NCBI GenBank assembly: GCA_964583685.1
Contig: CAZOVJ010000002.1
Coordinates: 213,862-277,861 of the forward strand
DNA length: 64,000 bases
From: an uncultured Gammaproteobacteria bacterium
Lineage (GTDB): Bacteria > Patescibacteriota > Microgenomatia > UBA8517
Reading direction: 5' to 3'
A model generated the notes under the pieces. The model was not told the origin of the DNA. It was given only the letters and a program-made list of their open reading frames with translations, and made no database searches. Made by a program: the position numbers and the translations under genes. How positions within the stretch are numbered: the stretch's first letter is position 1; every line of letters starts with the position of its first letter. Shown piece by piece: positions 32,039 through 48,109 of this stretch.

Positions 32039-32470
32039 ATGCGAGTGATTAACAAAAGAGCAAGATTTAATTACCGGCTAATAGATGAACTTGAAACAGG
32101 AATAAGTCTTACAGGTAAAGAAGTGAAGGCAGTGAGAGCTGGCCTTGTTGACTTAACCAGTGCTCATGGAAAAATTTTGCGAGGAGAAGTTTATCTAGTG
32201 GGAGCGGTTATCAATGCTTCTCGGGCCCAAAACTACGACCCTTCGCGTAGTAGAAAACTACTTTTGCATAAAAAGGAGATTGTTTCCCTTCAGAACAAAA
32301 TGAAACAAAAAAAGTTGACTCTTGTGCCTACTGCAATGTATACTAGGGGACGTTTAATTAAGTTGAAGCTAGCTTTAGCTAAAATTAAGCGCAAATTCGA
32401 GAAAAAAGAGACAATTAAGAAACGAGATATAGAGAGAGAAATCGAAAAAGAATTAAGGGGACGTCAATAG
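32039..32470 (+). CDS. smpB: SsrA-binding protein SmpB
   Basis: MRVINKRARFNYRLIDELETGISLTGKEVKAVRAG...: canonical SmpB N-terminus. Confidence 0.9.
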   Translation: MRVINKRARFNYRLIDELETGISLTGKEVKAVRAGLVDLTSAHGKILRGEVYLVGAVINASRAQNYDPSRSRKLLLHKKEIVSLQNKMKQKKLTLVPTAMYTRGRLIKLKLALAKIKRKFEKKETIKKRDIEREIEKELRGRQ

Positions 32471-32816
32471 GTTTCGACGAAAAGCACCTTTAAAAGATTG
32501 CAAGCAGACTTTGGTCTAGAGTCTTAAAAAAAGGCCGAACAAAACAAGCGTCAACGAAAAAAGTTACGCTCCCCAATACGCAGTAGCTTAATTGGGGTGT
32601 TCACCGACTTGTTTCTCGACCGAGCCGGATGGGCATAAACCAGTCGAGATGTAAGATATAGCATGACTTAAGGCCATATCTTAAGATTTTTAAGTCTTAC
32701 TCTGAATTATCCGGCCAACTGGTAAAATTTAGAGGAAATACTAAAGTTGGCAAAGCTTGTAGAGATTTTTTAAAGAACTTATTCGGACGAGGGTTCGATT
32801 CCCTCCGTCTCCACCA
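32457..32816 (+). ncRNA. ssrA: tmRNA (SsrA)
   Basis: 5' GGGGACGUCAAUAGGUUUCGACG pairs with 3' ...GGUUCGAUUCCCUCCGUCUCCACCA (tRNA-like T-arm + acceptor, CCA encoded); internal tag frame ...VNEKSYAPQYAVA-stop; follows smpB. Confidence 0.8.
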
Positions 32817-32831
32817 AGAAAAATTATGCCA

Positions 32832-32855
32832 TCCCGCACATTAGTGCGGGTTTTT
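32832..32855 (+). terminator. Rho-independent terminator after ssrA
   Basis: CCCGCAC-atta-GTGCGGG followed by TTTTT. Confidence 0.6.
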
Positions 32856-32857
32856 GT

Positions 32858-33547
32858 GTGCACAATGAGTTTATGGGGTTCTTGGATTTTATTTTTCCAC
32901 GAACTTGTTTAGGCTGTGGTGCTTCTGGCAAATATCTTTGTAGTCAGTGTATCCAAAAAATCAAGAAAGCTCCGGAAATCTGTTCCTACTGTGGTAGTTA
33001 TTCATTTCGGGGTGCGACCCATCAATCTTGTAAAAGACCTTTGGGTTTGGATGGAGCTTTTTCTGCTTGGAATTATGAAGGAGTGATGAGAAAGGCAATT
33101 TTGGCTCTCAAATATAAATTTGCTTCGGAAATTGCCAAGGAGCTGGCAGCAATACTTGCAAATGAGCTCAGGAAAAGGCCGCTTCAATTGACTAAAGCGG
33201 TGCTTGTTCCTATTCCTCTACATAGACAAAGAAAACTTTGGCGAGGCTTTAATCAAACAGAGGAAATCGGAAAACTGGTTGCCGAGAAAATGGGCTGGAA
33301 GTTTGAGAAAAATCTTATCTTAAGACAGGTTGATACCCTACCTCAGGTTCAATTAAAGAAAGAGAAGCGCAAATCGAATGTCCGCGGCGCCTTTTCTCTA
33401 AACCCCACTCACCAATCACCGGTTCTTTTTGATGATGTTTGGACAACTGGTCCAACCCTTAAAGAAGCGGCCAAAGTTTTAAAAACCTGTTTTCGCAGGC
33501 TGGAAAAAGGAACTGGAAAGGTTTGGAGCCTGACTCTGACTCGTTAA
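32858..33547 (+). CDS. comFC: ComF-family protein (double zinc ribbon + phosphoribosyltransferase domain)
   Basis: CLGCG...CSQC / CSYCG...C zinc ribbons, PRTase motif VLFDDVWTTGPTL. Confidence 0.65.
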   Translation: MHNEFMGFLDFIFPRTCLGCGASGKYLCSQCIQKIKKAPEICSYCGSYSFRGATHQSCKRPLGLDGAFSAWNYEGVMRKAILALKYKFASEIAKELAAILANELRKRPLQLTKAVLVPIPLHRQRKLWRGFNQTEEIGKLVAEKMGWKFEKNLILRQVDTLPQVQLKKEKRKSNVRGAFSLNPTHQSPVLFDDVWTTGPTLKEAAKVLKTCFRRLEKGTGKVWSLTLTR

Positions 33548-33548
33548 A

Positions 33549-33640
33549 GGCGGTGAGGGTGGGATTCGAACCCACGGTCCCGATATAATCGGAACACTCG
33601 CTTTCCAGGCGAGCCCGTTCGACCACTCCGGCACCTCACC
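33549..33640 (-). tRNA. tRNA-Ser (anticodon GGA)
   Basis: rc = GGTGAGGTGCCGGAGTGGTCGAACGGGCTCGCCTGGAAAGCGAG + long variable arm + GGTTCGAATCC T-loop; loop CUGGAAA. Confidence 0.8.
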
Positions 33641-33656
33641 ACATTTCGACAAATTC

Positions 33657-34094
33657 TTAAAACGGTCGAGGCTTTTGTCTTTCTAATTTTTTTAAAACCT
33701 CTTTAGCCTGCCTGAGCATTAATTTGTCTCGCTTATTGGCCAATTTTCTTACAGCTTTGCCATATTCTAGCCAGGCACAGTCAGTATATCCAATAACTTC
33801 ACTACCACTTATTTGGACTACTAGATAATAAAGACATCTTTGTGGTACGACTTTGTTGTTAATTTTTACAACCCCACCCGACCGTCCCGCTTCTTCTAAA
33901 ACTTTTACTTCCATTGCTCCCTGTTCGCCCATTGTCCGTATTGCGGTCCGCGCCGTTGACTCTGTTTTTCTTGCTGCTGCTTTGGGAATTTCCCATTTGC
34001 TGTCTTGGTTTTGTTTTACGATGAACCAAACAGTTTTACCCCTGAGTTTTTTGAAAACTATTGGGGCTGATAGTAAGAGTTGTTGGTTTCTCAT
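33657..34094 (-). CDS. Hypothetical protein (start trimmed to MRNQQ... to avoid tRNA overlap)
   Basis: ORF-track version (to 34145) overlaps tRNA-Ser(UGA); internal Met at 34094 abuts the tRNA. Confidence 0.35.
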   Translation of the reverse strand: MRNQQLLLSAPIVFKKLRGKTVWFIVKQNQDSKWEIPKAAARKTESTARTAIRTMGEQGAMEVKVLEEAGRSGGVVKINNKVVPQRCLYYLVVQISGSEVIGYTDCAWLEYGKAVRKLANKRDKLMLRQAKEVLKKLERQKPRPF

Positions 34095-34104
34095 AAGATT
34101 AAAG

Positions 34105-34188
34105 CGGAGGGTACAGGATTCGAACCTGTGCGGGTTTTCACCCACTGGTTTTCAAGACCAGCGCCTTAGACCACTCGGCCAACCCTCC
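34105..34188 (-). tRNA. tRNA-Ser (anticodon UGA)
   Basis: rc = GGAGGGTTGGCCGAGTGGTCTAAGGCGCTGGTCTTGAAAACCAG + long variable arm + GGTTCGAATCC. Confidence 0.8.
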
Positions 34189-34220
34189 AAGGTTCTGGTT
34201 TTTCCACAATAATTATTTTG

Positions 34221-34308
34221 CGGTGGGGACAGGATTCGAACCTGCGCGAGGGGATTAACCCTCAATGGTTTAGCAAACCATCGCCTTAGACCACTCGGCC
34301 ACCCCACC
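34221..34308 (-). tRNA. tRNA-Ser (anticodon GCU)
   Basis: rc = GGTGGGGTGGCCGAGTGGTCTAAGGCGATGGTTTGCTAAACCAT + long variable arm + GGTTCGAATCC. Confidence 0.8.
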
Positions 34309-34377
34309 AAACAGACTCAATTATAACAGATTTTAGGTTTGGAATGAAGCTTAAAATAAAGTATAATAAAATCCAAG

Positions 34378-34893
34378 ATGGCTGCCAAAGAAGAGACATT
34401 ACCTGTTGCCATCAGAAAAGAGACGGAAAGAGTCTTAATTAGTTGGATGGCACCAGCGAGGCCCTTTAAAAGAAGAAGCCGGGATTTCTATATCACCATA
34501 GTGGCTATTGCCATAGTTTTCGGACTAGTCCTTTTTTTTGTTGAAGGCTGGCTTCCTGTTATTCTTGTTATTTCTCTGGTTTTCCTGGTTTATGTTATGT
34601 CAAGCGTTGAGCCAGAGAGCATAGAGTATAAGATAAGCAATCAGGGAATAAAGGTTGCCGGTAAAAGGACTGATTGGCGAGCGATGACCAGGTTTTGGTT
34701 TAGTAAACGGTTGGGAGTAGACCTTTTGGTGATTGAAACTTGGAAACTGCCGGGAAGGTTAGAGGTTGTTATCAATCCGGAGTTAAAAAAGGAAATTACC
34801 AAGGAGATTTCCAGGTTTTTGCCCCATGAAGAGGTGCCGCCTTCTTTCCTAGATAAAGCCAGTAATTGGTTGAGCAAGAAATTGCCTTCTTAA
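34378..34893 (+). CDS. Small membrane protein (two TM), unknown function
   Basis: 171 aa; TM pair FYITIVAIAIVFGLVLFFVEGWLPVILVISLVFLVYV. Confidence 0.45.
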   Translation: MAAKEETLPVAIRKETERVLISWMAPARPFKRRSRDFYITIVAIAIVFGLVLFFVEGWLPVILVISLVFLVYVMSSVEPESIEYKISNQGIKVAGKRTDWRAMTRFWFSKRLGVDLLVIETWKLPGRLEVVINPELKKEITKEISRFLPHEEVPPSFLDKASNWLSKKLPS

Positions 34894-34965
34894 GCCCTTG
34901 TAGCTTAACGGATAGAGCATTGGTTTGCGGAACCGAAGATACCAGTTCGATTCTGGTCAAGGGCA
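34894..34965 (+). tRNA. tRNA with anticodon GCG (Arg by anticodon; unusual isoacceptor)
   Basis: GCCCTTGTAGCTTAACGGATAGAGCATTGGTTTGCGGAACCGAAGATACCAGTTCGATTCTGGTCAAGGGCA; cloverleaf folds, anticodon loop UUGCGGA. Confidence 0.55.
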
Positions 34966-34969
34966 CATT

Positions 34970-35057
34970 GGTGGGGTGCCGGAGTGGCCAAACGGGATGG
35001 TTTCGAAAACCATAGGGAGTAATCCCTTCGCGAGTTCGAATCTCGCCCCCACCGCCA
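34970..35057 (+). tRNA. tRNA-Ser (anticodon CGA), CCA encoded
   Basis: GGTGGGGTGCCGGAGTGGCCAAACGGGATGGTTTCGAAAACCAT + long variable arm + GAGTTCGAATCTC...ACCGCCA. Confidence 0.8.
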
Positions 35058-36948: not shown

Positions 36949-38028
36949 ATGTTTAGGAAAGCTACCCGAGAACTGATTAAAAAAGGACAGGGACAGGGTT
37001 TTCTGACCCAGGAGGAAATATTGGAGATCTTTTTTGATGCCGAGAAAAGAATTGATGAACTTGACCTTTTATACGAAAAGCTTTTAGGTGAGGGAATAGA
37101 TGTTTTCGAATCGGTTACCCCGGAAGAGGTGGAGGAGAGCGAACAAGTACAAAAGACTTTTGAGAAGGAAATTGTCATACTTTCTCGGTTTGAGAAATCG
37201 GAATCTATTGACCCAGTGCGCCAATATTTGAAAGAAATAGGTCAATATCCTCTTTTGACTGCTGAAGAGGAAATAGAGCTTGCCAAGCGAGTTGAAAAAA
37301 GAGACAAACGGGCTAAGAGTAAATTAACAGAATCGAATTTAAGACTGGTTGTTTCAATTGCCAAAAAATACATTGGTAGGGGTCTTTCTTTTCTTGATCT
37401 TATTCAAGAGGGAAACCAGGGATTAATTCGAGCTGTAGAAAAATATGACTGGAGAAGAGGCTATAAATTTTCAACCTACGCTACCTGGTGGATACGCCAG
37501 GCGATTACTCGAGCAATAGCTGACCAGGCAAGGACAATAAGAATTCCGGTCCATATGGTAGAGACAATCAACAAGCTTTATAAGACCAGTCAGCGACTTA
37601 TGCAGGACTTAGGCCGCGAGCCCACACCAGAGGAAATAGGTAAAGTATTGGAGATAACCGGTGACCGGGTGCGGGAGATTTTCAGGTTTTCTCAAGAGAT
37701 AACCTCTCTTGAGGCCCCGGTGGGTGAGGATAGAGAAAGTCTTTTGGGAGATTTTATTCCAGATGACAGTCGGCCCACTCCGGTTGAGAGAGCATCAGAG
37801 CAGCTTTTAGAAGATAATCTCAAAGAGGTCTTGGAAACTCTTTCTGACCGTGAAGCAAGAGTTTTAAAACTGAGATTTGGTCTAGAAGGAGGCGATTCCA
37901 TGACCTTAGAGCAGGTGGGTAAGGTTTTTGGAGTTACTCGCGAACGCATTCGTCAGATTGAGGCCAAGGCTTTACGCAGATTAAAACACCCAAGTAGAAG
38001 GAAAAAACTCCAAGACTATCTAGATTGA
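36949..38028 (+). CDS. rpoD: RNA polymerase sigma-70 factor RpoD/SigA
   Basis: Region 2.4 [27 protein letters not shown], region 4 [31 protein letters not shown]; dnaG-rpoD operon. Confidence 0.9.
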
Positions 38029-38114
38029 CTAGGGTTTGAGGCAAGAGTTTGATATAATATGGAGGCTAGAGAACATTTTACATTTTGCACTTTGAATTTT
38101 GAATTGGTTATCAT

Positions 38115-38186
38115 TCCCCGGTAGCTCAATGGTAGAGCGCTCGCCTGTTAAGCGAAGGGTTGCTGGTTCGAGTCCAGCCCGGGGAG
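38115..38186 (+). tRNA. tRNA-Asn (anticodon GUU)
   Basis: TCCCCGGTAGCTCAATGGTAGAGCGCTCGCCTGTTAAGCGAAGGGTTGCTGGTTCGAGTCCAGCCCGGGGAG; anticodon loop CUGUUAA. Confidence 0.8.
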
Positions 38187-39785
38187 CATAAGTGTACGAT
38201 TCTGACATTTAACGAGGATATCAAAGGGTTTTTTGTAGGTAAAATCAATCTTTTTGTCCTTCAAGGTTAGGTTCTGAAATACAAAATTTAATAGCTCACT
38301 CTTTCGTTTATCACTTGCCTTGTTAAATAATTCTTTTGCTTTTTGAGACAGTTCTAAGTAGAGAATGGCTCTCTTAAACCATTTTTTGTCTAGGTTTTTG
38401 TATTTCTCGATTTCCTGTTCAAGTTCTTGCTTTTCCTGCTCATATTGGTCGTTTTTCTTGTCAAATTGGGCTTTTTTTATCTTTTGGTCTATATAGAGTT
38501 CTAGTAATCTATCTTGTTTAGGTTGTAGTTTTCCAAGGTGTCTGTTTAGGTTCTGTAATGATACATCCCTAATTTTTTGCTCCTCTTTAAGACCCTCTTT
38601 TAGCTCCTCTCGAAAAATTGGGCTAAGTTCTTCAGGCAAGCTGACCTTTTCTATTGCTTCTTCAAACACTCTCTGGAGATATTCGTGCTTAACCGAGCCC
38701 TGAGAACAACCGAAGCGATTTCTGGTGCAGTGATAGTAGATGTAGTGTAGATACAAAGGCTTTTTCATCTTTTTGATGGGTGTTTTACACTTAGGGCAAC
38801 ACCTTTTGTTCTTGTAGTGGAATTTGTTTTTACACTTGGGACAAATTAACTGAAACTTTTGCTCGGCAGTAATTCCTGCTCCACACTCACCGCATCGCAT
38901 TTCCTCAAGCTTGAAAGGGAAATCATAGATTCGTTGAAAACGGTGACCTTTGGCTTTTAGCCTTTCTTGGACTCTTTGCCAAAGCTCGTAATCAATAATT
39001 GGTTTGTGGCTGCCTTTATGTAATTTTCCTTTCCACCTAAACCAACAGTAATAGAAGGGATTTGTTAGTATATTATGCCAAGCTCCTTTACCGACCTTGC
39101 CCCCTGGCTTTCTTTTAGTAGCCCTACTCCTAAAACCATTTTTGTAAGCCCATTCCACAATCCCGTCAATAGAAAGTCTACCCACGTCATAGAGCTCAAA
39201 TGCCTTTTGGATTATCGGGGCCTTCGAGAAATCAACCTCTCTTTTATCTGATTCTTTGCCTGTTAGGGCAAAATACTCTTTCCTGGTTAAGTAACCAAGT
39301 GGGGGGACACTTGGAAAAAAACCTTGCTTAACCCTTTCCGCTTGCCCTTTTTTAGTTTCCTCACTGAGGTTGTCTATTTGCCATTTGGCCATAAGAGCTT
39401 GTAGGCCAAACATAGCGTGGCCTTGAGAATTGTTTTCAAACCTACCGGTGACACAGACTAAATCCAATTCTTTAACTCTCCATACATCGCATATTTGTCC
39501 TAAATCGTGCCAGTTTCTTGTTAGCCTGTCTGGCTTATGAGACAAAAGGCCGTACTGGCCAGTTGGGACTTGTCCTAGTATGCCCATCACTTCATTAAAC
39601 AATGGCCTACCTGAGTCTTTAGCTGATTTCTTTTCAGAAAACCACTTGATAATTTTCAATCCTTCTTTTTTAGCAAAATCTTCAATTTGATGTTTTTGGG
39701 CAGCAAGACTTAATTCTTGCTTGTCCTCGGTATCGGTTGACTTTCTGATATAAGCAAGATATTTTTTGTTGTTCATATTTGTCAT
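38148..39785 (-). CDS. Large serine recombinase (integrase)
   Basis: N-term YIRKSTDTEDKQELSLAAQ (resolvase catalytic Ser), recombinase domain, Cys-rich zinc-ribbon region CGECG...CPKC...CPKC; last 13 codons and stop lie inside tRNA-Asn. Confidence 0.8.
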   Translation of the reverse strand: MTNMNNKKYLAYIRKSTDTEDKQELSLAAQKHQIEDFAKKEGLKIIKWFSEKKSAKDSGRPLFNEVMGILGQVPTGQYGLLSHKPDRLTRNWHDLGQICDVWRVKELDLVCVTGRFENNSQGHAMFGLQALMAKWQIDNLSEETKKGQAERVKQGFFPSVPPLGYLTRKEYFALTGKESDKREVDFSKAPIIQKAFELYDVGRLSIDGIVEWAYKNGFRSRATKRKPGGKVGKGAWHNILTNPFYYCWFRWKGKLHKGSHKPIIDYELWQRVQERLKAKGHRFQRIYDFPFKLEEMRCGECGAGITAEQKFQLICPKCKNKFHYKNKRCCPKCKTPIKKMKKPLYLHYIYYHCTRNRFGCSQGSVKHEYLQRVFEEAIEKVSLPEELSPIFREELKEGLKEEQKIRDVSLQNLNRHLGKLQPKQDRLLELYIDQKIKKAQFDKKNDQYEQEKQELEQEIEKYKNLDKKWFKRAILYLELSQKAKELFNKASDKRKSELLNFVFQNLTLKDKKIDFTYKKPFDILVKCQNRTLMLPGLDSNQQPFA

Positions 39786-39917
39786 TATTTTTCTTTACTG
39801 AGTTGGTGTAAGTTGGTGTATATTTTGTGCCTGTTTCTGACTAATTCTTTCGCCTGCTTAGGCACAAAAATCTTATGTAACAGTTTTTTGGCCTCTCCCA
39901 CCATCCCTGACATCCGC

Positions 39918-40568
39918 CTAACATTTCTTACTTAACCTTCTCTTATTCAGCTTTCTTAGTTTCCAAACTTTCTTTTTATATTTGTCGTTTTTTATAGAAA
40001 TAGGTTTGTTCAGAAGTATCCCCTCATAATAGAATTTCTCATCCGCATTTTTCTGATAATCGCCTGAAAGCTGTTTTAGTAACCCTCGCCCTCTTTCCGT
40101 ATGCTCGTCAAGAGCTTCTGATTGAATTTTTAGTTTCCAGCCCGCCTTTCTTTTCAAATCAATATAATCGCAGGCGTAGTCAATTTCTCTGGATTTTTTA
40201 GCCCTACAAAGATAGAGGACAGCCATAGCAGGATGAAATGTTTCTATGTAATACTTTTTATTCACCCTTTCATTTAATTGGGCTAAGGCGTTAATTAGGA
40301 TTGGAGCTTGCGAGTCGGCAAGGCCAGCATCTTCAACAACAATGACGCTTAGCCTTCTCCAAAGGTAAGCAATATAGCGACCTTTAATTAGCTCCATCAT
40401 CCAAAACAAAGCCTTTTCCTCTTGGCCTCTACGAATAGCTTTTTGGAGTGAACTGACTACCTCATCCAATTTATACCCACCCGGAGTTTTGAGTTCAAAA
40501 GCAGGCTTTCTATCCTTCTTTTTTCCGTTTTTCTTTGTTTGGCTTTCTGCCTTAGTTTGGTTTTTCAT
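39918..40568 (-). CDS. Stand-alone MgsA/RarA C-terminal-domain-like protein
   Basis: LDEVVSSLQKAIRRGQEEKALFWMMEL...WRRLSVIVVEDAGLADSQAPIL... matches the MgsA_C pattern; no AAA+ domain. Confidence 0.4.
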   Translation of the reverse strand: MKNQTKAESQTKKNGKKKDRKPAFELKTPGGYKLDEVVSSLQKAIRRGQEEKALFWMMELIKGRYIAYLWRRLSVIVVEDAGLADSQAPILINALAQLNERVNKKYYIETFHPAMAVLYLCRAKKSREIDYACDYIDLKRKAGWKLKIQSEALDEHTERGRGLLKQLSGDYQKNADEKFYYEGILLNKPISIKNDKYKKKVWKLRKLNKRRLSKKC

Positions 40569-40780
40569 TTTAATCTCCTTTTTGGCCTTCTGAGATGCTC
40601 CTGAACGCTCTTTAGCAGCTTCAAGGTAGATGTTTATTGTTTTATCTCAAATGGCTCTTTTATCAGCTTATAATTTTTCTATCAGACTTTATTAGATTTT
40701 GGGACTGACAGTCTCAGCTAGGTTTATGAATGTGCAAAATAGCCTGATTTATGATATATTTTGAGCGTAACAGCCTGGCC

Positions 40781-41185
40781 TCATACGTCAAGTAAGGGTT
40801 CATTTGCCCCCGAAAGTTCCTTCTTAACTTTTTTAATCACTGTGTGCAGTTTTTCAATTATTTTGCTTGTTGGTAAATTCCCTATTTCATCCCAAATCCG
40901 GATGACTAATTCTTGGCTTTCGTTATTAAGTAATCTCAAGAGGTTGTCTGTATTTTTCATAAGTTGAATCTTCCGCCTCCATTTTCTGGCTTCTGATTTG
41001 GGAATATACATTTTCTTCAACTTTCTCTCTAATCTTTCGTCATAATCTCGGTAATACAGATAATAGGCTTTATGCCCTTTACCTCTGGTACAACGGCAAT
41101 TTGATTTTCCGCATTTAACTTTTTCAAGCCTGATTATTCCTAGCTCTTTCGGTTTATACTCTCTAAATGCTAAATCGTAGGCCAT
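40781..41185 (-). CDS. Small Cys-containing basic protein (CGKSNCRC), unknown
   Basis: 134-aa ORF in island. Confidence 0.35.
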   Translation of the reverse strand: MAYDLAFREYKPKELGIIRLEKVKCGKSNCRCTRGKGHKAYYLYYRDYDERLERKLKKMYIPKSEARKWRRKIQLMKNTDNLLRLLNNESQELVIRIWDEIGNLPTSKIIEKLHTVIKKVKKELSGANEPLLDV

Positions 41186-41189
41186 ACTA

Positions 41190-41444
41190 CTAACTTTCAG
41201 AAAATACCCTCGCTTTTAAGTTTTTGATGCTATTGACAAAAGATTTGACCTCAACCTTTGCTTCTCCCAACCAGTAGCAATTAACCTTTTCCTCGCATCG
41301 CCCTTTGTTGTTAAACACAAACCAGAAAAAGTCTTTTTCGGGCTCAAGTCTCACCAGTTTTTCCGACAGAGACAAGAAACTGGCAAGATATAAATCTTTA
41401 GTTCTGTATTCGTTCTGTTTTGGCATTTTTGGTTTCCTTTTCAA
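41190..41444 (-). CDS. Hypothetical small protein
   Basis: 84-aa ORF, tight spacing with neighbours. Confidence 0.3.
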   Translation of the reverse strand: MKRKPKMPKQNEYRTKDLYLASFLSLSEKLVRLEPEKDFFWFVFNNKGRCEEKVNCYWLGEAKVEVKSFVNSIKNLKARVFSES

Positions 41445-41668
41445 TCTTGTATAAAGTCACTAAAAAACCTCTGATATTCGCCGAAATCCCCCTGACTTCG
41501 TTGTCAGTAAGATTTCTCTGATACAGAGGTTCAAAGTATTGCTTGATTCGCTGCTGGTTTTTGGTAAGTTTGATGTCCATTTTCTCTGGGTTTTAATCTT
41601 TAATCCCAGATTAAGGCATTAAACTTCTTAATGTAATGGAGGTTTAATAGAAAGCTAAGTTTCCGCTT

Positions 41669-42349
41669 TTAAGAGGCTTGGAGTCTTTTTTCGTACTGCT
41701 TTACTGCCTTCCTGACCGTTTCTTTATACTTTTCAGGGTCAATGCCGCCTCTTTCTTTGTCTTCTGTGGCGATTTGCAGGTGAGTTTTCTCTTGTTTCTT
41801 TTTCCAATACCATTTCCTGTCCCTTTTTATATTGCTGATTGTATCGGGCGGTGCGTCTCCGTATGAGAGATAAACCCTATCAAAAGGTCTGATTTTCCTG
41901 ATAGTCTTAACCTGGGTTTTGAACTCCCTAAAAGCAGCTTCTAACTCTTTCTTGGTGGTGTCTGCTGTTATATAAATAGCAAATCTTGTAGGTGTACCCA
42001 CATCCATATCATTATCAACAGGACGCCAGTAGGCGGTTTCGTAGATTTTGTCATCAATATATCCGCTAATGATAGCCATATAGATAGCCCTGTCAAAGTT
42101 GGCTGTGAGCCTAAAGTGATTTCTTATTGGAGCAACATCTTTCCAGAAGCTATCGTATTGACCTTTTTTAACCATCCTGCTTGCCCATTCAAACTCCTGC
42201 TTTGGCTTAATAAGTCTAGTAATCTGCCACTTTTGCCTTAATCTGGTTACCTCTTTCAGAAAATCTTTTCTATCCACCAAGAAAGCAATATCGCAGTATT
42301 TCTTTTTATTCTTAATCTTTATCCTTACAGGTTCATATTTCATCTTCAT
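41669..42349 (-). CDS. Hypothetical protein (226 aa)
   Basis: ORF with upstream AG-rich RBS; no motifs recognised. Confidence 0.4.
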   Translation of the reverse strand: MKMKYEPVRIKIKNKKKYCDIAFLVDRKDFLKEVTRLRQKWQITRLIKPKQEFEWASRMVKKGQYDSFWKDVAPIRNHFRLTANFDRAIYMAIISGYIDDKIYETAYWRPVDNDMDVGTPTRFAIYITADTTKKELEAAFREFKTQVKTIRKIRPFDRVYLSYGDAPPDTISNIKRDRKWYWKKKQEKTHLQIATEDKERGGIDPEKYKETVRKAVKQYEKRLQAS

Positions 42350-42471
42350 CTAACTGGTATTTTATTGGATTAGAAGGATTTATTCAAAAATGGAGGTGTT
42401 CAAGGGAAAGTATCCGACAAAACAAAGCTAAGGAGCAGTCTTACTTTTTGAGCCAAAAATAGACAAGTTGC

Positions 42472-42903
42472 CTATTTGTAGTCTTCCACAATCATCTCGT
42501 AATTACCCAAAGAGTTAGAGTCGATATAGTATTCTCCCGAGCCATAAAAAATCGATTCATCCTTTACTGAGCCAGTTGTGTTCATAATCAGGTCTGACAT
42601 AATCTCACTATCTGGTTTTTGCAAAAAAGCTTGGCATAAATCGCCAGTACAGTTGTATTTGATTTTGAATCTATCCCCAGTAATTGTGAATGGTTCAGAT
42701 TTTTTAGCCCCATTGCCCTTGAAGGTAAAAACTGGTTGGTATTCTTTGGTGGCTTCTTTACTTTTTTGTGAGACTTCGGTTTCAGTCGTTGGACTGGTAT
42801 TTGATTGTTTTTCTCCACCACTGCCTGCCAATAAGCCAATGACTATAAAAACAGCCAATATGATACCTGCTATTTTTAGAACTTTTTTCACTTTTCTTCT
42901 CAC
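42472..42903 (-). CDS. Membrane-anchored secreted small protein
   Basis: N-terminal TM IAGIILAVFIVIGLLAG then Thr/Ser-rich linker. Confidence 0.4.
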   Translation of the reverse strand: MRRKVKKVLKIAGIILAVFIVIGLLAGSGGEKQSNTSPTTETEVSQKSKEATKEYQPVFTFKGNGAKKSEPFTITGDRFKIKYNCTGDLCQAFLQKPDSEIMSDLIMNTTGSVKDESIFYGSGEYYIDSNSLGNYEMIVEDYK

Positions 42904-42988
42904 CTCCTTTCGTTTTGGTTTGTTTGGTGAAAATATAACAGATTTACCGTCAAAAGTCTATGTTTACTGCGTTGTCGTTTTCTGAGGA

Positions 42989-43225
42989 TTGGTAAACAAT
43001 AGATTCACAATGCTATCCAAAAAAGCCTTCGCGGAGAAAGTTGGAAAAAATATAAAACGATTGAGAGAAAAAAGGGGGCTATCACAGGAGGAATTAGCTC
43101 ACAAAGCTGGACTTTACCGAACTTACATGGGTCACTTAGAAAACGCCAGATATTCCCCCAGTGCTTATATTTTGTATAAACTAGCTAAGATTTTGAAAAT
43201 AAAGATTTCGGAGTTTTTTTCTTAA
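42989..43225 (+). CDS. XRE-family HTH transcriptional regulator
   Basis: NIKRLREKRGLSQEELAHKAGLYRTYMGHLENARYSPSAYILYKLAKIL: classic HTH_XRE. Confidence 0.6.
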   Translation: MVNNRFTMLSKKAFAEKVGKNIKRLREKRGLSQEELAHKAGLYRTYMGHLENARYSPSAYILYKLAKILKIKISEFFS

Positions 43226-43236
43226 CGAAGTCAATT

Positions 43237-43701
43237 TTAGGATGCTTGAGTTGTTTTTTGAATCATTTCTAAATTCTTTAGTAATTGTTTGAGGATGGAT
43301 TTTTCAAAGAACTCAAAAGCTGGTTTATCTTTTGTCGTAAGCAAGTATCTTGCGGCTTTACTAGAAACTCTTAGGTGATGATATTTTGCCCTTATAGATG
43401 GAAATCTTTTAGCAATCAGGGTTTCCCTAAAGGCGTGCATGCTTTTATCTATGTCTAATGAGGCCATAGTTGACCGGTGGCGATTATAACAGTCATCAGT
43501 ATGCAATATTTCTGGGATACGGGTGAATGCAGCTTCAACGAAATGAAGAGCAGCATAAAAAGCACAAGTAATAGACCAATCTATAAAATCTGTCTTGGAA
43601 AGTTGTTTTGAGAGTTTCTTATTGTGCTCCGCTTGAGCATTATGCGTAGATAAACTTGACATTTTGGTAATCAAATGATTTTGCTGGGTGCAGATAGTCA
43701 T
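43237..43701 (-). CDS. Hypothetical protein (possible HEPN-like helical domain)
   Basis: 154 aa; ...WSITCAFYAALHFVEA...RAKYHH...; assignment weak. Confidence 0.35.
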   Translation of the reverse strand: MTICTQQNHLITKMSSLSTHNAQAEHNKKLSKQLSKTDFIDWSITCAFYAALHFVEAAFTRIPEILHTDDCYNRHRSTMASLDIDKSMHAFRETLIAKRFPSIRAKYHHLRVSSKAARYLLTTKDKPAFEFFEKSILKQLLKNLEMIQKTTQAS

Positions 43702-44323
43702 TAAATTCAGTTGACTCCTCTCTTTTTTTAACTGATAAATTTTCTTGTATTGCTCTGGTGAATATCAGTCTGTCTTCCTGGGGATTTATTAGGTTATTAC
43801 TTTCAGGATAATATGGAATATATTCAAAACTGATTAGTTTTTCTGAGAATGAGTCTTTAACAGGAAATTCTGCTTCATTAAAAATTTTGTCCATCAAATT
43901 GTAGTTATAGTGCTCAACATCTAATATGACCTTGACGGTTGTTAATTCTTCATTATGACTAATATAAATTTCTCTTATTTGTTCAAAATTTTTCAACCTG
44001 CGTGCTATTTTTAATTCTAATTGCTCTTCCGGTGTTGTTGGGTAATCTGACATAAGAGTAAAATCTTGTAAAGGCTGGTTAAAAGCTAAATAGCTTTGTG
44101 GTGGTGAGGCTGTGAAGTAAATAACTTGATTCATTTGTTGTTCACTTTGTGTCCCTAAGGAGATAAGGGCGGATTCTTCACAGGAGGCATTTATTGACTT
44201 TACTTCTATCGATGCCCCAGGAGATGCGTTTTCTTCATCAATAAACTTCCTTTGTAGTGAGGCAAGTAAGTAAGTATCATTTAATTTAGAGGTAGCTTCA
44301 AAACTGCTATTTATTGTGTTCAT
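43640..44323 (-). CDS. Hypothetical protein (227 aa)
   Basis: Overlaps downstream gene by 62 nt; AT-rich. Confidence 0.4.
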   Translation of the reverse strand: MNTINSSFEATSKLNDTYLLASLQRKFIDEENASPGASIEVKSINASCEESALISLGTQSEQQMNQVIYFTASPPQSYLAFNQPLQDFTLMSDYPTTPEEQLELKIARRLKNFEQIREIYISHNEELTTVKVILDVEHYNYNLMDKIFNEAEFPVKDSFSEKLISFEYIPYYPESNNLINPQEDRLIFTRAIQENLSVKKREESTEFNDYLHPAKSFDYQNVKFIYA

Positions 44324-44328
44324 TTTAA

Positions 44329-45030
44329 CTATAGTCCGAGACTGGCGAGAGTACTTTTTACCGATAATTCAAAGGCGTTACTAAAAAATGCCATCGCTTT
44401 TGGAAAATCAATTTTGTATTTAATTGTTTTTAATGTATTGATGTCTGATATTACTAAAAACAATCCTTTTTCTTTATTTCCTTCTTTTGAAATTAGCCTT
44501 ATCCAGTTATTTGTTTTGAAATCTCCAATTTTTTCAATAAATAATCTATGTATCTGTAGTTCGGTTGAGGCGTCTTTCGGATTACTAAGATAATTTTTCT
44601 TTAGGAGTTCTATTCCGTTGATAGATTGGCTGACTTTGTATTTTGTAACTAATCCTAGTCTATTGCTGGTCATTGAAAATCTAGTAAAGGTAATTTTGGC
44701 TAGTCTTTGGACAACCTTAAAGAAATCTTCTTTTGTTTTCTCAAGCGGCTTTTTCTCATCTGTTTCTTTATAGCTTAAATCAAGCCTATTGGCAGCGATA
44801 TTACAAGTTAGGTTTTTGTCTTTGCTAATTAAAATTATTCTTGGTATTTCTAAAGGTGCATCATCTGGTATTGGAAGGGTAGTTGGTGTTCCATTGAGTT
44901 TTGGAGATAGTCCTTTTTGTATTAAACTAGCTACACTTAACCTGTTTGATAAATCTATATTCCCGAGGAAAAAAGCAGCCTGAATGGATTGTGTAGAGAA
45001 TGGTATTTTCATAAAATCTAAATTAGACAA
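44329..45030 (-). CDS. Hypothetical protein (233 aa)
   Basis: First gene of three-gene minus-strand operon. Confidence 0.4.
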   Translation of the reverse strand: MSNLDFMKIPFSTQSIQAAFFLGNIDLSNRLSVASLIQKGLSPKLNGTPTTLPIPDDAPLEIPRIILISKDKNLTCNIAANRLDLSYKETDEKKPLEKTKEDFFKVVQRLAKITFTRFSMTSNRLGLVTKYKVSQSINGIELLKKNYLSNPKDASTELQIHRLFIEKIGDFKTNNWIRLISKEGNKEKGLFLVISDINTLKTIKYKIDFPKAMAFFSNAFELSVKSTLASLGL

Positions 45031-45189
45031 ATATATTATAACAGAAGGTAAAATTAATTTCTTTTTACACCATTAAACTAGTCCGAACTTCGTCTACGAT
45101 GGGGAGCCGAACTTTTTTGGCCTCAGATTTTACTACCCTCAGCAGGACGTTAAAACCCATGCTAGACTTGTTCAGACCTTTATAATGTT

Positions 45190-45762
45190 GTGAACAAACC
45201 AAGACCCAACAAGGCAGAGAAAAAGTTTTTGAATTTAGCATACAACAAGTTTTACGACATTTTTGATGAGATTGCCAATGACTCCTTTTGGAAGAAAAGT
45301 GATTATTACAGATTATGTAAAATTAAAGAAGCCTTTTCTTTGTATTCCGAACTTCTTAATTATCCACCAATAGGTTGGTTTATAGAGCAATTAAAGGAGA
45401 ACCGTCCCCCAATGGAGGCAGAGATAGGTGGTGAACTATTTCGTTTTGTCAGAAATGTTATGGTTCACTTTCCCTTATTTGAAGGCTGGAATGAAATTTG
45501 GATAGATAAAGATATTGTAAATTGGCACAAAAAAGGATTGTCCATTGATAGGTTTCTTAAAAAATACGATGGACATAAAGTGGTTAAATATAGAATTTGG
45601 GAAGCAGCAAAAAAGAAAATGACTTATATAAGTATAAAATTTCCTAAAAGCTACAAAAAGGGCAAGAAGGTTTACCTAAGGGATGTTATTGAAGAAAAAG
45701 ATGGAATTTGGTTTTCGGTAGTTTTTATGAAAAAAATCCTGGACCCTCAAATTGAACAATGA
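45190..45762 (+). CDS. Hypothetical protein (190 aa)
   Basis: GTG start 3 nt after a TATAAT hexamer; start uncertain. Confidence 0.4.
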   Translation: MNKPRPNKAEKKFLNLAYNKFYDIFDEIANDSFWKKSDYYRLCKIKEAFSLYSELLNYPPIGWFIEQLKENRPPMEAEIGGELFRFVRNVMVHFPLFEGWNEIWIDKDIVNWHKKGLSIDRFLKKYDGHKVVKYRIWEAAKKKMTYISIKFPKSYKKGKKVYLRDVIEEKDGIWFSVVFMKKILDPQIEQ

Positions 45763-45776
45763 TGGAAACTGGCTTC

Positions 45777-46436
45777 TTATAACAATTCAGAAGGGCGATA
45801 TTTATTCATTCCTGGGTTTGGCCATATTTCCCCAATGAATACCCGTTCACTTGAAACACTATAAAACATTACTGCCGAAAATGGATAGTTTTTAGAATTG
45901 AAACGCTTGGAAATTATTTCCCAATCCACAAAACTGACATCCTCAGGAATTATTAGCAACTTTGTGTTTGTTTTTGTGTACCGCCGAGGTATTTCCTTGT
46001 TAAGGTATTCTAAAAGAGTTTCTGTTATGTCTCCCTTTTTATGTTTTCTAAAGCGTTTTAATTGAAACGCAATACCTTTGGAAGTTTTCCTGTCCATATA
46101 TTTTATTTTTCCTGGGCTTATTACAACATCTATTGGAGTATTAGAGTCGGTATATCTTCTCAAAATCTCTCTAATTAACAACAGATTCGCCTTTCCTTTA
46201 TCTGGTATGTCTCTCGCATATTTATCTTTTAGCTTAAATCCTATTAGGGTATCGGTTTTCCACAATTTACGGTAGAAACCACTTAATAGTAAACTTATTA
46301 TTAATTCGTAGTTTTGGGAATCAGACTTTATGTTAACTTTTTTTAATAATGCCTTTAAAGTTCGTCTCTTAATAAAAAATGTCTCCACAAGACCTATTAT
46401 ATTAGATGTTGTGAAGATAAAAGGTTCTGACTTCAT
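45777..46436 (-). CDS. Hypothetical protein (219 aa)
   Basis: Convergent with previous gene; start abuts conserved 132-nt intergenic block. Confidence 0.4.
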   Translation of the reverse strand: MKSEPFIFTTSNIIGLVETFFIKRRTLKALLKKVNIKSDSQNYELIISLLLSGFYRKLWKTDTLIGFKLKDKYARDIPDKGKANLLLIREILRRYTDSNTPIDVVISPGKIKYMDRKTSKGIAFQLKRFRKHKKGDITETLLEYLNKEIPRRYTKTNTKLLIIPEDVSFVDWEIISKRFNSKNYPFSAVMFYSVSSERVFIGEIWPNPGMNKYRPSELL

Positions 46437-46616
46437 CCACGATAAGATTTCGTGCTTTATGTAGAAAGAAAATTACGCTGATAATCTGGATGAAGAATTA
46501 GAAACGGGCTTGGTACTTCTGTGTAATGCCTGATGAAATAGTTTCTGTATTTATATATATTAGGGAGCTAGCTTCAGAAAACCTATTTAGCGGGCTTTAT
46601 TTGGTAGAATAGAAGT

Positions 46617-47330
46617 ATGAGAGTTGGGTTGGTGATTGCTAAAGATGAGAAAGATTTATCTGAACTGAGAAAGTTCGTTCTTGAAACAAAAGAGGTAGAT
46701 TTGTTTCTTTTCCCCGAGGGATATTTAGATGCAGCCCAGCTTGATGAAGCATCGGAAATCGTGGCAAGGTCAAGTAAGTGGCTTGTAACTAGCTATTCTG
46801 ATGAAAGAAAAAAGAGAAAAATTGAGGTGGGAGTTGTATTTAATAGGAGAGGTAAAATAGTTGGCAAGCACGCTAAGACGACTTTAACCCGAGATGAGAT
46901 AAAAAAGGGTTACGTCTCGGGCAAAAGTATTGAAATTATCAAAACAGAATTTGGGAAAATAGGAATCTGTGTTTGTTACGAGATGCATTTTCCTGAAATA
47001 GCTCGGGAATACAAACTCCAAGGTGCAAGAGCGATTTTCAACCCCGTCGGGACAGGAATGTATAACGAGGAACAATATAGGCTTTGGGCTTCGTTGGGTA
47101 AAACCAGAGCTTATGAAAATGGAGTTTACACCTTTGGCTGCAGCCACCTTAGCGATGCGATTCCAATAGCCTACGCTTATGATAAAGATGGAATTGAGCT
47201 ACTAAAAGCAAGGGCTGTAAATAAGCTCTTTATACTTAATGTTCCTGTTGAGGAGATGACGAGGAAAGATGATAGGTGTAGTTTGATAACCAAAAGAACT
47301 CCCAAGCTTTATAAAAACCTTTCTAGGTAA
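46617..47330 (+). CDS. Carbon-nitrogen hydrolase (nitrilase superfamily) protein
   Basis: Catalytic triad context LFLFPEGYL (Glu), K, GICVCYEMHFPE (Cys). Confidence 0.6.
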   Translation: MRVGLVIAKDEKDLSELRKFVLETKEVDLFLFPEGYLDAAQLDEASEIVARSSKWLVTSYSDERKKRKIEVGVVFNRRGKIVGKHAKTTLTRDEIKKGYVSGKSIEIIKTEFGKIGICVCYEMHFPEIAREYKLQGARAIFNPVGTGMYNEEQYRLWASLGKTRAYENGVYTFGCSHLSDAIPIAYAYDKDGIELLKARAVNKLFILNVPVEEMTRKDDRCSLITKRTPKLYKNLSR

Positions 47331-47437
47331 CTAAACTAGTTCGAACTTCGTCCACGATAGAGTAACTTCAAGCTCAATTTGATGGGCTTTCTGATTTTTA
47401 ATTTTCGCTAGCGATGATGTTTTGGTAGAATTAACAT

Positions 47438-48109
47438 ATGAGTACTACAATAGATTGTCTTAGAACCAGGAGGAGTATCAGGGTTTATAAACCAGACCCA
47501 ATCCCCAAAGAGATTTTAAAGAAAATCTTCGAGGCGGCAGAACATGCACCTTCTTCTAAAAATACCAGACCTTGGGAATACTATGTTTTAACCGGGAAAG
47601 AAAAAGACCATATTTGCGATATAGTTGTTGAAGAATATCCCAAGAGAAAAGGCCCTTTCAGGAAGCGAGAAGAGTATGCACCCGCTAAATCCGTTAGCGA
47701 TGATAGAAATATTGATGATTTTCGGACTGCCAGAATAATGACGAATATCGGCAGTACAGTCTTTATTCGTCAGGCTCCAGCTCTGGTTTTAGTATTCAAT
47801 AAGGCTCCATACACTGCCGGAGAGCAAGATGTCATCGATGAAGCAGGAAAAGAGGCGCTTTTGGCCTATTGCGTTGAAATTCAAGGCGTGGCGGCTTTTA
47901 TTTATAGCCTTTTATTGGCCGCTCACGAACTTGGCTTGGGTGGTTGCTGGATTGCCGATATCAATTTCTGTCGGGACAAAATCAAAAAATACATTGGCAC
48001 AGACAACGATTTGGTTGCAGGCGTGGTTTTGGGCTATCCTGAAACTAAGGTTCCCCCTAAGAAAATTTCTTTGGATGAGCGAAAATTAGCTTCCTGGAAG
48101 AAGAAATAG
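47438..48109 (+). CDS. Nitroreductase-family protein
   Basis: RRSIRVYKPDPIPKEILKKIFEAAEHAPSSKNTRPWEY: nitroreductase signature. Confidence 0.7.
   Translation: MSTTIDCLRTRRSIRVYKPDPIPKEILKKIFEAAEHAPSSKNTRPWEYYVLTGKEKDHICDIVVEEYPKRKGPFRKREEYAPAKSVSDDRNIDDFRTARIMTNIGSTVFIRQAPALVLVFNKAPYTAGEQDVIDEAGKEALLAYCVEIQGVAAFIYSLLLAAHELGLGGCWIADINFCRDKIKKYIGTDNDLVAGVVLGYPETKVPPKKISLDERKLASWKKK

Follow-up and report, generated by a model that had tools for sequence, protein, structure and literature searches.

The locus

The window analysed here (a stretch of 64 kb) contains an intact tRNA-Asn gene and, on the opposite strand, an ORF for a serine recombinase, which overlap by 40 nt, stop codon included (Table 1). 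The strand antisense to the T-arm and the anticodon loop of the tRNA encodes the terminal residues of the recombinase and supplies its TAA stop: the integrated form of the protein ends in ...LMLPGLDSNQQPFA, the last base of tRNA-Asn falls on the third position of the Met codon of ATG CTC CCC GGG, and the TAA is complementary to bases 2-3 of the anticodon together with A37. An initial annotation of this DNA had already described the overlap, with a length of 39 nt that has to be corrected by one, and had traced the last residues and the stop to the reverse complement of the tRNA, with which the coordinates of both ORF and tRNA agree.

Table 1. Features of the tRNA-Asn locus (positions in the window)
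Feature	Position	Strand	Remarks
tRNA-Asn(GTT), intact	38115-38187	+	ARAGORN; Rfam RF00005, 69 bits over 38115-38186; B half of attL
LSR gene, integrated form, 545 aa	38148-39785	-	residues 1-535 from the element; last 10 and stop antisense to tRNA-Asn
attL core GGAGC	38183-38187		GGGAGC (38182-38187) in the window; ends of four lineages compared
P' arm of attP, putative, approximate extent	38188-38215	-	inside the last LSR codons ..KCQNRTLM; conserved as DNA up to the core
MgsA_C-like protein, conserved module	39918-40568	-	Pfam
DUF6788, conserved module	40781-41185	-	Pfam
DUF5659, conserved module	41190-41444	-	Pfam
60-aa ORF, conserved module	41398-41580	-	gene order in relatives
226-aa protein, conserved module	41669-42349	-	gene order in relatives
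143-aa protein	within 42472-43225	-	weak Sie-like PHROG matches, residues 3-55 (about 3e-4)
XRE-type HTH protein	42989-43225	+	HTH gene at the same relative position in L001
Variable cargo, five ORFs (154, 227, 233, 190, 219 aa)	43237-46436		GC 33%
Displaced LSR 3' end, copy 1	46457-46567	-	LP+NIYKYRNYFIRHYTEVPSPFLILHPDYQRNFLST, stop; continues the LSR frame through the core
attR1 core GGAGC	46564-46568		right-hand boundary of the element (8,381 bp); core-anchored comparison
Appended 2.9-kb segment between attR copies	46569-49360	+	GC 41%
CN hydrolase, appended segment	46617-47330	+	
Nitroreductase, appended segment	47438-48109	+	
TrpD-like glycosyl transferase family 3 protein, appended segment	48194-49291	+	
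Displaced LSR tail, copy 2	49361-49472	-	LPNIYKYRNYFIKHYTEVPCPYLILHPEYQHSFLPA, stop; contains the attR2 core
attR2 core GGAGC	49468-49472		third copy of the core

Judged by its sequence, the recombinase is a large serine recombinase (LSR), with a catalytic domain, a Recombinase domain and a short att core. Pfam matches cover the resolvase catalytic domain (PF00239, residues 11-155, 8e-23) and the Recombinase domain (PF07508, residues 188-278, 2.9e-13); the catalytic motif reads YIRKSTD, and the serine nucleophile S16 together with R14, D86, R87 and R90 is invariant across homologues. Residues 226-330 match the A118 integrase C-terminal domain (E 3e-5), at low identity. The zinc-ribbon family PF13408 has no Pfam match in the window LSR or its close relatives; C298, C301, C353 and C360 are invariant in homologues, and the window family carries, in the putative zinc-ribbon region, an extra insert of ~35 residues that contains two CxxC pairs. 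An AlphaFold model of the homologue P0119, which is 28% identical to the window LSR, predicts the full LSR architecture and aligns over its full length to the solved LSR-att complexes 9y66, 9dxd and 9iu2 (E about 1e-19). On the IMG contigs that carry the window LSR, its gene had not been called; annotation pipelines probably discard such LSRs owing to their overlap with a tRNA.

Ends of the element and attachment sites

The three copies of the core GGAGC delimit an element of 8,381 bp and an appended segment of 2,904 bp. In a core-anchored comparison of the ends in four lineages, this core (5-6 nt) is the sole repeat between the two element ends, and a second copy of the tRNA-Asn 3' part is absent from the 64-kb window, as the initial annotation, which expected no long direct repeat, had anticipated. 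With an integrase adjoining tRNA-Asn and a far end that repeats the tRNA terminus over 5-6 nt, the element has the layout of a tRNA-targeted island. The P' arm up to the core reads TGTCA[GA]AATCGT[AT]CACTTAT/GCTCC in the window and in two related elements (L001 and L002), and GCTCC is found in all four lineages (window, L001, L002 and L136). The similarity of the LSR 3' end to that of its relatives ceases exactly at the core, beyond which the tRNA T-stems differ. Rfam matched the tRNA alone on the island.

The attP junction reconstructed for the window element is ..TATATATTAGGGAGCATAAGTGTACG.. (across the core, ..TTTATATATATTAGGGAGC/ATAAGTGTACGATTCTG), and the two types of reconstructed attB are ..GTCCAGCCCGGGGAGC/CCTGAATAAAAAGAGCC and ..GGGGAGC/TAGCTTCAGAAAACC. 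Dyad symmetry of the reconstructed sites is weak, with no convincing centre, and the sequence does not fix a central dinucleotide; no obvious similarity is shared by the four lineages in their B' flanks, a situation uncommon among LSR sites. At the tRNA side, two Logan contigs stop precisely at 38187, and an island-side contig begins at 38158. The assembly graphs from two samples branch right after ..GGGGAGC (38187/38188), with no alternative continuation identified at that branch.

Comparison with related genomes, the route proposed in the initial annotation for defining the att sites, located the ends by means of a far-end block that is conserved. A metagenome scan for the 3' half of the window tRNA-Asn with a base other than A after it returned 35 loci, all of them tRNA-Asn genes of other bacteria that differ from the window tRNA in the anticodon stem, and recovered no empty attB of this host; nor was an excised circle of the element recovered. 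A 12-nt match to the tRNA-Asn 3' end (AGCCCGGGGAGC) at 59137-59148 was first taken as the end of a 21-kb island and then rejected, as it sits in a terminator hairpin (E about 0.6) and the far-end block puts the ends at 46568 and 49472.

The displaced C-terminus of the integrase

The far-end block, which is common to the window and all three related elements and is present in two copies in the window, includes 29 nt that do not vary between the window, L001 and L002. It extends the LSR reading frame by 34 conserved codons, which places attP inside the integrase gene and, because of that, the natural LSR C-terminus at the opposite element end, at a distance of 8.4 kb. This is the main peculiarity of the locus, and the initial annotation missed it. 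As attP lies 34 codons before the natural stop, the LSR of the excised circle would have about 569 aa, and as the gene spans the attachment site, insertion would swap the conserved tail for residues read from the antisense of the tRNA. The attachment site thus sits within the integrase's own ORF, and integration partitions the gene.

It has to be considered whether the block is instead a DNA site only, i.e. a P arm with accessory sites or a promoter, with the integrase ending at ..LMLP. Its first ~27 nt, which also serve as the P arm of attP, are invariant as DNA, as a protein-binding arm would be, a weak promoter-like match overlaps it, and integrated genes that lack the tail are intact and frequent. 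Past the invariant arm, however, the changes cluster at third codon positions (15, 8 and 23 variable columns at positions 1, 2 and 3), pN/pS is 0.10-0.51 in 10/10 pairs, the LSR frame alone is open and conserved while the other two are closed, and the stop lies at the same codon in three of the five copies. Furthermore, homologous tails with the motif D-x-R-T are contiguous with the rest of the protein in many database entries, and in a modelled homologue they are predicted with confidence to form two helices. The tail is coding, and a purely non-coding role of the block is improbable.

Promoter and terminator scans were uninformative. Copy 1 of the tail is followed by a hairpin (46438-46454), and a terminator-like hairpin with a T-run lies beyond attR2 (49478-49506), which may be the original terminator of tRNA-Asn. 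Tails of the window family end in LST, LPA, LTY, IQN or ATA; a degron-like -AA ending is absent from them, so that a role as a degron lacks support in this element, and is confined to a sister subclade, in which 9-11 excised-form tails end in -AA, an end that the model predicts to be disordered.

Cargo and the appended segment

The five-gene module next to the LSR has the same order in L001, L002 and L136, and its DNA is 68-74% identical to that of L001 and L002. The five ORFs of the variable cargo have no Pfam family at E<=0.01, and their PADLOC and PHROG matches are marginal (E at least 5.8e-05). GC is 33.3% at 43237-46436, compared to 42-44% in the flanks, and falls to 33-36% inside the element; the atypical composition noted in the initial annotation therefore stands, with 33-34% in place of its estimate of about 30%. 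In the relatives, the variable position holds an MmeI-type restriction-modification (RM) system, a type III RM system or a TIR protein.

Serine integrases being typical of temperate phages, the island could also be a (defective) prophage, for which weak PHROG matches to the ATPase phrog_33349 (5e-19) and to the Sie-like families listed in Table 1 can be cited. This is very unlikely, as the 8.4 kb contain no capsid, tail, terminase or lysis genes, the attP junction and the P-block have no match in IMG/VR, where no relative was found by DNA pattern, the best INPHARED phage match is 24% identical, and the relatives bear RM and TIR cargo.

The segment 46569-49472 has probably been accreted to the element. 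No LSR remnant was found in it by tblastn, and an exact-protein look-up of its glycosyltransferase with a GTG start returned nothing on record.

Related elements at tRNA-Asn

Three related elements, with LSRs 65-75% identical to that of the window, adjoin tRNA-Asn in other Woesebacteria-like genomes, so that the LSR module lies against the antisense of tRNA-Asn in four lineages (window, L001, L002-5 and L136-8), which differ in host flanks and cargo. This bears out the serine-integrase insertion at the tRNA-Asn 3' end put forward in the initial annotation, which had named an ancestral gene order conserved across distant relatives as the finding that would refute it; the reverse is observed. 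The ORFs of the close relatives end 12 nt into the tRNA, as opposed to 40 nt in the window, because their T-stem happens to read TAG (the T-stem is CCAGC or CCTAC/CCTAG depending on the host); the long tRNA-encoded tail of the window LSR is not a designed feature.

That the adjacency is kept in relatives and that the metagenome scan recovered no empty site would also fit an ancestral, domesticated chromosomal recombinase, with the tRNA overlap as incidental read-through. There is only a slim chance of this: the other side of tRNA-Asn, the far flank and the cargo vary between genomes, in L001 dnaG-rpoD is 8 kb off with other genes between it and the tRNA, and the far-end block and core repeat delimit a discrete unit with its own GC content. 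A crossover inside the tRNA (anticodon or T loop) in the style of tyrosine integrases, by which the element would bring a replacement tRNA 3' half and the 40-nt overlap would be element-borne, deserves next to no weight, given that no tRNA fragment lies at the candidate far ends or elsewhere in the window, the end-to-end identity is just 5-6 nt, and the T-stem varies with the host while the element is conserved up to the core.

Proposed model of integration

In the model proposed here, which we hold with a probability of roughly 0.85, an LSR has inserted an element at the 3' end of tRNA-Asn from an attP within the integrase gene, whose tail was thereby displaced. Positions 38188-46568 would constitute an integrative element in a Woesebacteria-like (CPR) bacterium, inserted at the extreme 3' end of the tRNA by its LSR, the putative catalyst of the attP x attB event. 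The crossover core would correspond to the final bases of the tRNA (acceptor-stem 3' strand, discriminator and C), with strand exchange within GGAGC, i.e. the last acceptor-stem bases and the discriminator, leaving tRNA-Asn intact and duplicating 5-6 nt only. In the circular form, the ~569-aa LSR would carry its conserved C-terminal tail, followed by the hairpin; integration would carry the tail codons to the far end (attR), and the integrated gene would run into the antisense tRNA, gaining a short, host-dependent tail of 10 residues in the window (stop in the anticodon loop) and one residue in the relatives. The variable cargo of the family would consist of defence systems. We infer that the element still moves.

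Distant homologues

Of 80 LSR loci retrieved from GTDB genomes as the nearest relatives (29-34% identity), 61 have an LSR ORF that overlaps an antisense tRNA, on at least 12 tRNA species. These loci are spread over Patescibacteria, Omnitrophota, Desulfobacterota, Armatimonadota, Planctomycetota and Acidobacteriota. Recurring at these 61 and at the 3 close homologous loci, the LSR/tRNA overlap is, on this comparison, not a product of chance. Among the 120 homologues listed, 41 have tRNA-antisense tails and 27 conserved D-x-R-T tails; most of the other 52 end within a few residues beyond the junction, and some have tail-like ends as well. A relative at tRNA-Arg (L115) carries a contiguous, intact P'-core-P attP junction, ~99% identical over ~265 nt to the junction rebuilt from its attL and attR halves. 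Far ends were also sought at the 61 distant loci, but neither a regex scan nor a short HMM outperformed frame-shifted, reverse-complement and shuffled controls, so that the generality of the split gene outside the window family rests on L115 and the two tail classes. L123 and L105 are plausible far-end candidates; L115 alone was validated independently.

Relation to known systems

Descriptions of serine integrases usually name protein-coding genes as their targets. To our knowledge, the characterised LSRs (A118, Bxb1, phiC31 and TP901-1) have protein-coding or intergenic targets and an attP outside the int ORF. The window LSR shares with them the resolvase and recombinase domains, a putative zinc-ribbon region that is rich in Cys and precedes long helices, the very short att core and an integrase gene that adjoins attP, and differs in that its attB is a tRNA 3' end and its attP lies inside the ORF. 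Serine recombinases with a tRNA gene as attB have been reported for phiRSM1 (tRNA-Ser), Mycobacterium AICEs (tRNA-Leu) and the Paracoccus phage Pami6 (tRNA-Met), one paper terming such use "rare" (PMC3218068; PMC6536676), and a 2022 survey of LSRs does not mention tRNA at all (PMC10083194). In contrast to the present family, those are isolated cases, the phiRSM1 enzyme being small and resolvase-like, and the texts searched make no mention of an int ORF entering the tRNA or of a split int gene. A full-text literature search, of incomplete coverage and not a proof of novelty, returned no account of the clade and none of a serine integrase whose gene is split.

The "suicidal" archaeal tyrosine integrases of the SSV1 type also have the recombination site within their own gene, target a tRNA and are partitioned on integration (PMC8371274). 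There, however, the enzyme is a tyrosine recombinase and the split gives two inactive halves, whereas the window LSR loses 34 C-terminal codons only and keeps its catalytic and DNA-binding domains in one ORF.

A parallel for the swapped tail is the integration-dependent immunity of the mycobacteriophages BPs and Brujita, reportedly described by Broussard et al. in 2013. In these phages, attP likewise lies in a gene, attB is a tRNA 3' end, and the C-terminus is replaced with a stop at or near the junction; the removed C-terminal end is an ssrA-like degron (PMC9262239). Their split gene encodes the repressor, however, their integrase is a tyrosine recombinase, and the tail of the window family lacks the -AA end. 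It is tempting, if doubtful, to see in the tail swap a built-in sensor of the integration state across a clade of tRNA-targeting serine integrases. If this were so, the excised circle alone would encode the full-length enzyme, with the conserved tail governing integration competence, directionality or stability, and the integrated tail-less enzyme would differ, e.g. by being excision-competent or stabilised. Directionality control would then be partly independent of a separate RDF, and the clade would offer integrases naturally targeting near-universal tRNA 3' ends.

The effect of the swap aside, which we likewise infer, an attP inside the integrase gene, with a conserved tail exchanged on integration, may bear on the control of directionality and stability, and tRNA targeting, termed rare or unknown for serine integrases in the reference papers searched, is found at most of the 80 nearest loci fetched. 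The family would move defence systems among CPR bacteria, a group with poorly known mobile elements, and enzymes recognising conserved tRNA ends may be of use in genome engineering.

The tyrosine-integrase islands of the Islander/TIGER type resemble the window element in that the integrase lies beside a tRNA whose function is kept and the far end repeats the tRNA end. They differ in the enzyme family, in tRNA-fragment repeats that are typically 15-50 nt or more as opposed to the 5-6 nt repeated here, and in a crossover located in the anticodon or T loop or at the 3' end. Tandem stacking at one tRNA is possible in both, and at L135 elements are stacked in this way.

Anatomy of the island

The window carries a large serine recombinase (LSR) island at the 3′ end of tRNA-Asn(GTT) whose integrase gene is itself split by integration, an anatomy to which we assign a probability of roughly 0.85. 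The integrase ORF contains Resolvase (8e-23) and Recombinase (2.9e-13) domains by Pfam, two of the hallmark domains of LSRs, and its nearest solved relative by sequence is the A118 integrase. The zinc-ribbon PF13408 was not detected by Pfam in this enzyme or its family; the zinc-ribbon region (residues ~310-345, about 38750-38860) holds an insert of ~35 residues with two extra CxxC pairs (CPKC..CPKC), defined for the window family against the more distant homologues P0010, P0011 and P0014. The overlap of this ORF with the tRNA, with its antisense tail and stop, stands as initially annotated, although it measures 40 nt and not 39 nt: the final base of tRNA-Asn coincides with the third position of the Met codon ATG in ATG CTC CCC GGG, and the stop TAA is complementary to bases 2-3 of the anticodon together with A37.

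In two JGI contigs (L006 11080-12837 and L009 1868-3522, corresponding to window 38028-39785 and 99.97-100% identical there) the 1.6-kb LSR ORF is uncalled, probably because of the tRNA overlap, and integrases overlapping tRNAs may be systematically absent from some annotations. In the L009 variant, which comes from another sample, the stretch from the LSR start to the MgsA_C-like gene is short of 146 nt (window 39794-39939); through this deletion the LSR loses its upstream region and the adjoining ORF grows to 246 aa.

A blastn comparison of two related contigs, L001 and L002, with the window revealed a non-genic block common to the far ends of the elements, the 29-nt heart of which, AGTTTCTGTATTTATATATATTAGGGAGC, is invariant in all three and present at two places in the window. 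For the four lineages (window, L001, L002-L005 and L136-L138), near and far ends were compared side by side, anchored on the common core, and the sole sequence that the two ends share is GCTCC in the LSR orientation, or GGAGC in the tRNA sense, extending to GGGAGC in the window, as anticipated by the earlier expectation that no long direct repeat would be present. The 3′ end of the element's LSR is conserved right up to this core and the tRNA T-stems past it differ between hosts, which places the crossover within the last tRNA bases and leaves the tRNA undisrupted.

Features of the window element and of related loci (window coordinates unless a contig is named)
Feature	Location	Strand	Description
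tmRNA and tRNA cluster	32457-35057		tmRNA (tag VNEKSYAPQYAVA); five tRNA genes (four Ser, one Arg)
tRNA-Asn(GTT)	38115-38187	+	ARAGORN; Rfam score 69 bits
LSR ORF	38148-39785	-	545 aa; C-terminal end ..KCQNRTLMLPGLDSNQQPFA, stop
Element	38188-46568		8,381 bp; GC 36%
Cargo ORFs	43237-46436		Five ORFs; GC 33%
Tail block, far end (attR1)	46436-46568		Heart 46540-46568; tail peptide LPNIYKYRNYFIRHYTEVPSPFLILHPDYQRNFLST, stop
Segment after attR1, through second copy	46569-49472		2,904 bp; CN hydrolase, nitroreductase, TrpD-like; GC 41%
Tail block, second copy (attR2)	49340-49472		Heart 49444-49472; tail peptide LPNIYKYRNYFIKHYTEVPCPYLILHPEYQHSFLPA, stop
L001			Tail peptide LPNIYKYRNYFIRHYTELPNPLLILHPDYQHNFLQ..; cargo MmeI-type restriction-modification (RM) enzyme
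L002			Tail peptide LPNIYKYRNFFIEHYAEVANPLLILNPNYYEN..; cargo type III RM and protease
Split tRNA-Asn(GTT)	L002 11581-11890		Adjoins LSR; also in L003-L005
Group I intron	L002 11627-11861	-	Rfam RF00028, 63.9 bits
L136			Tail peptide LHNIHNYRNFFIHHYTEVPNPLLVLPPDYQYQFATA, stop; cargo TIR-domain protein
L135			Cargo Type ISP C-terminal domain protein
L115 inverted copy	L115 9700-9960	-	Contiguous LSR 3′ end, core and tail block

The integrase gene spans the attachment site

Across the core the LSR frame is open and encodes a conserved peptide in all five far-end copies, the other two frames being closed. The pN/pS of this tail lies between 0.10 and 0.51 in 10/10 pairs (32 codons), with 15, 8 and 23 variable columns at codon positions 1, 2 and 3, and both window copies have a hairpin, CACGA-N7-TCGTG, past the tail stop, differing in the loop only. 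The open conserved frame, low pN/pS and hairpin thus identify the 133-nt block as the natural 3′ end of the integrase gene together with a likely terminator. An excised circle would accordingly encode an LSR of about 569 aa, and integration moves its last 34 codons 8.4 kb away, so that the gene continues into the tRNA antisense strand. In L001, L002 and L136 the T-stem carries an in-frame TAG, and the ORF ends 12 nt inside the tRNA; the T-stem of the window is CCAGC/GCTGG, so that reading goes on as far as the anticodon-loop TAA. The length of the tRNA-encoded tail is an accident of the host, and any functional consequences of the tail swap are hypothetical.

Serine-recombinase integration at tRNA genes has been called “rare”, the cases being phiRSM1, one group of Mycobacterium AICEs (tRNA-Leu) and one Paracoccus phage (PMC3218068; PMC6536676); tRNA goes unmentioned in a large LSR survey (PMC10083194), and reviews of IMEs place serine-recombinase sites inside genes (PMC5704250). 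The window element works like other tRNA-targeted genomic islands, and its gene-internal att site is shared with the archaeal SSV1-type “suicidal” tyrosine integrases (PMC8371274) and with mycobacteriophage integration-dependent immunity, in which the repressor gene is split and an ssrA-like tag is lost on integration (PMC9262239). No description of a serine integrase with a gene-internal att site of either type was found in the part of the literature covered, and a prior one is possible.

Close relatives and cargo

In a protein search, the window LSR matched seven full-length proteins at 65-75% identity, one of them named as Candidatus Woesebacteria. On their contigs the LSR has a common module on its upstream side, made up of a protein of 226-282 aa, one of 60 aa, DUF5659, DUF6788 and an MgsA_C-like protein, in a somewhat different order and spacing in L136. 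Antisense tRNA-Asn(GTT) directly follows the LSR in L001 and L136-138; ARAGORN called no tRNA in L002-L005, in which a group I intron splits the gene within the anticodon loop. Host flanks and cargo vary among the lineages; this is a mobile family and not a conserved neighbourhood, so that the ancestral gene order considered initially is not what is observed. With the shared core and far-end block, the relatives uphold the original interpretation of a serine-integrase element integrated at the tRNA-Asn 3′ end.

The five low-GC cargo ORFs of the window have only marginal PADLOC/PHROG matches (E of at least 5.8e-05) and no Pfam family at E<=0.01; as they fill the slot of the RM and TIR genes of sister elements, they are a candidate for a defence system of unknown type. 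The atypical composition noted to the right of the LSR is real, but the figure of ~30% needs correction to 33-34%, against 42-44% in the flanks. The presence of dnaG and rpoD upstream, with the tRNA cluster and tmRNA further left (3-6 kb from the island), marks the left side as host chromosome. At 59137-59148, 12 nt match the 3′ end of tRNA-Asn; they lie inside a terminator hairpin downstream of a 178-aa ORF, and the match was judged to be due to chance.

The wider family

The family alignment, run against one genome for each GTDB species, returned no close relative and 80 LSR loci at 29-34% identity, in Patescibacteria, Omnitrophota, Desulfobacterota, Armatimonadota, Planctomycetota, Acidobacteriota and others. 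In 61/80 the LSR ORF overlaps an antisense tRNA (Asn, His, Leu, Gln, Arg, Gly, Lys, Thr, Val, Tyr, Ser or Ile) at its 3′ end, and 11 of the remaining 19 leave the contig before the stop. Past the conserved ..KKPFDIL.. motif, the 120 homologues listed fall into three tail classes: tRNA-antisense tails (..DSNxxP.., GIEP, GFEP) in 41, a conserved tail 15-50 residues long with the motif D-[VIL]-R-T-[FYW], aligning with the ..YRNYF.. tail of the window family, in about 27, and, in the other 52, mostly short stops a few residues past the junction with some tail-like ends. The first and the short stops may be read as integrated copies, the second as excised-type.

Direct support for a split LSR gene beyond the window family comes from L115, a tRNA-Arg locus in which attL and the far-end block share a 9-nt core, GAATGGCGC, followed by the tail EWRSLADEIRTYFEAQLKKI and a stop. 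An inverted, contiguous copy in the same locus is ~99% identical over ~265 nt to the junction reconstructed from these two ends. This attP-configuration 3′ fragment sits inside the element, just upstream of the full LSR, and may be an inversion product or the remnant of a second copy. Generic far-end scans of the remaining distant loci performed no better than controls, and the split gene is therefore not claimed for every member.

The AlphaFold model of P0119, an excised-type homologue, has a mean pLDDT of 85.9 and aligns full-length to recent LSR-att cryo-EM structures (E about 1e-19); in its displaced part the model has two helices (pLDDT 81-91), after which the chain ends in a disordered ..RQSRAA. 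Such -AA ends, found in 9-11 excised-type tails of a sister subclade (P0068, P0070, P0088, P0092, P0096, P0101, P0115, P0119 and P0120, also P0060 and P0107), resemble ssrA-like degradation tags.

Probable passage through an excised form

The purifying selection seen on the displaced tail argues that elements of this family cycle through an excised form. Among contigs from other samples, 99.97-100% identical to the window genome, those of Logan SRR3095939 and SRR3095933 end exactly at 38187 and the island-side contig starts at 38158, a 30-nt (k-1) overlap, so that the assembly graph branches right after ..GGGGAGC, the predicted crossover. No alternative continuation matched the other branch at 38187, and contigs expected to merge with an empty site or excision product had no break at the expected points. 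Neither the empty site of this host, proposed initially for defining attL and attR, nor the circle junction of an excised form was found. The island-side Logan contig, L134, breaks in addition within the 226-aa module gene (window 41709), which suggests further strain-level variation within the element.

The second far-end copy and tandem arrays

The two tail blocks of the window are 86% identical, with 36 nt exact, and the segment between them is host-like in GC and holds no integrase remnant. The Logan contig L012 spans 46539-49472 with the same 30-mer at both ends, so that a tandem and a circular form are indistinguishable. A hairpin and T-run after 49472 would suit the tRNA's original terminator. 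L135 10001-21725 has a window-family LSR in an attP-like junction with its excised-type tail kept. Behind it come CBASS-like genes (SMODS/CD-NTase, Cap15), a gene resembling LexA, methyltransferases, a PvuII-like endonuclease and then a second LSR, an arrangement suggestive of defence islands in tandem array. As the four lineages have unrelated B′ flanks, recognition mainly by the tRNA half-site is plausible; a tRNA already occupied could then receive new elements, with the older ones decaying outward. The 2.9-kb segment may be a decayed element remnant, captured cargo or a hitchhiker.
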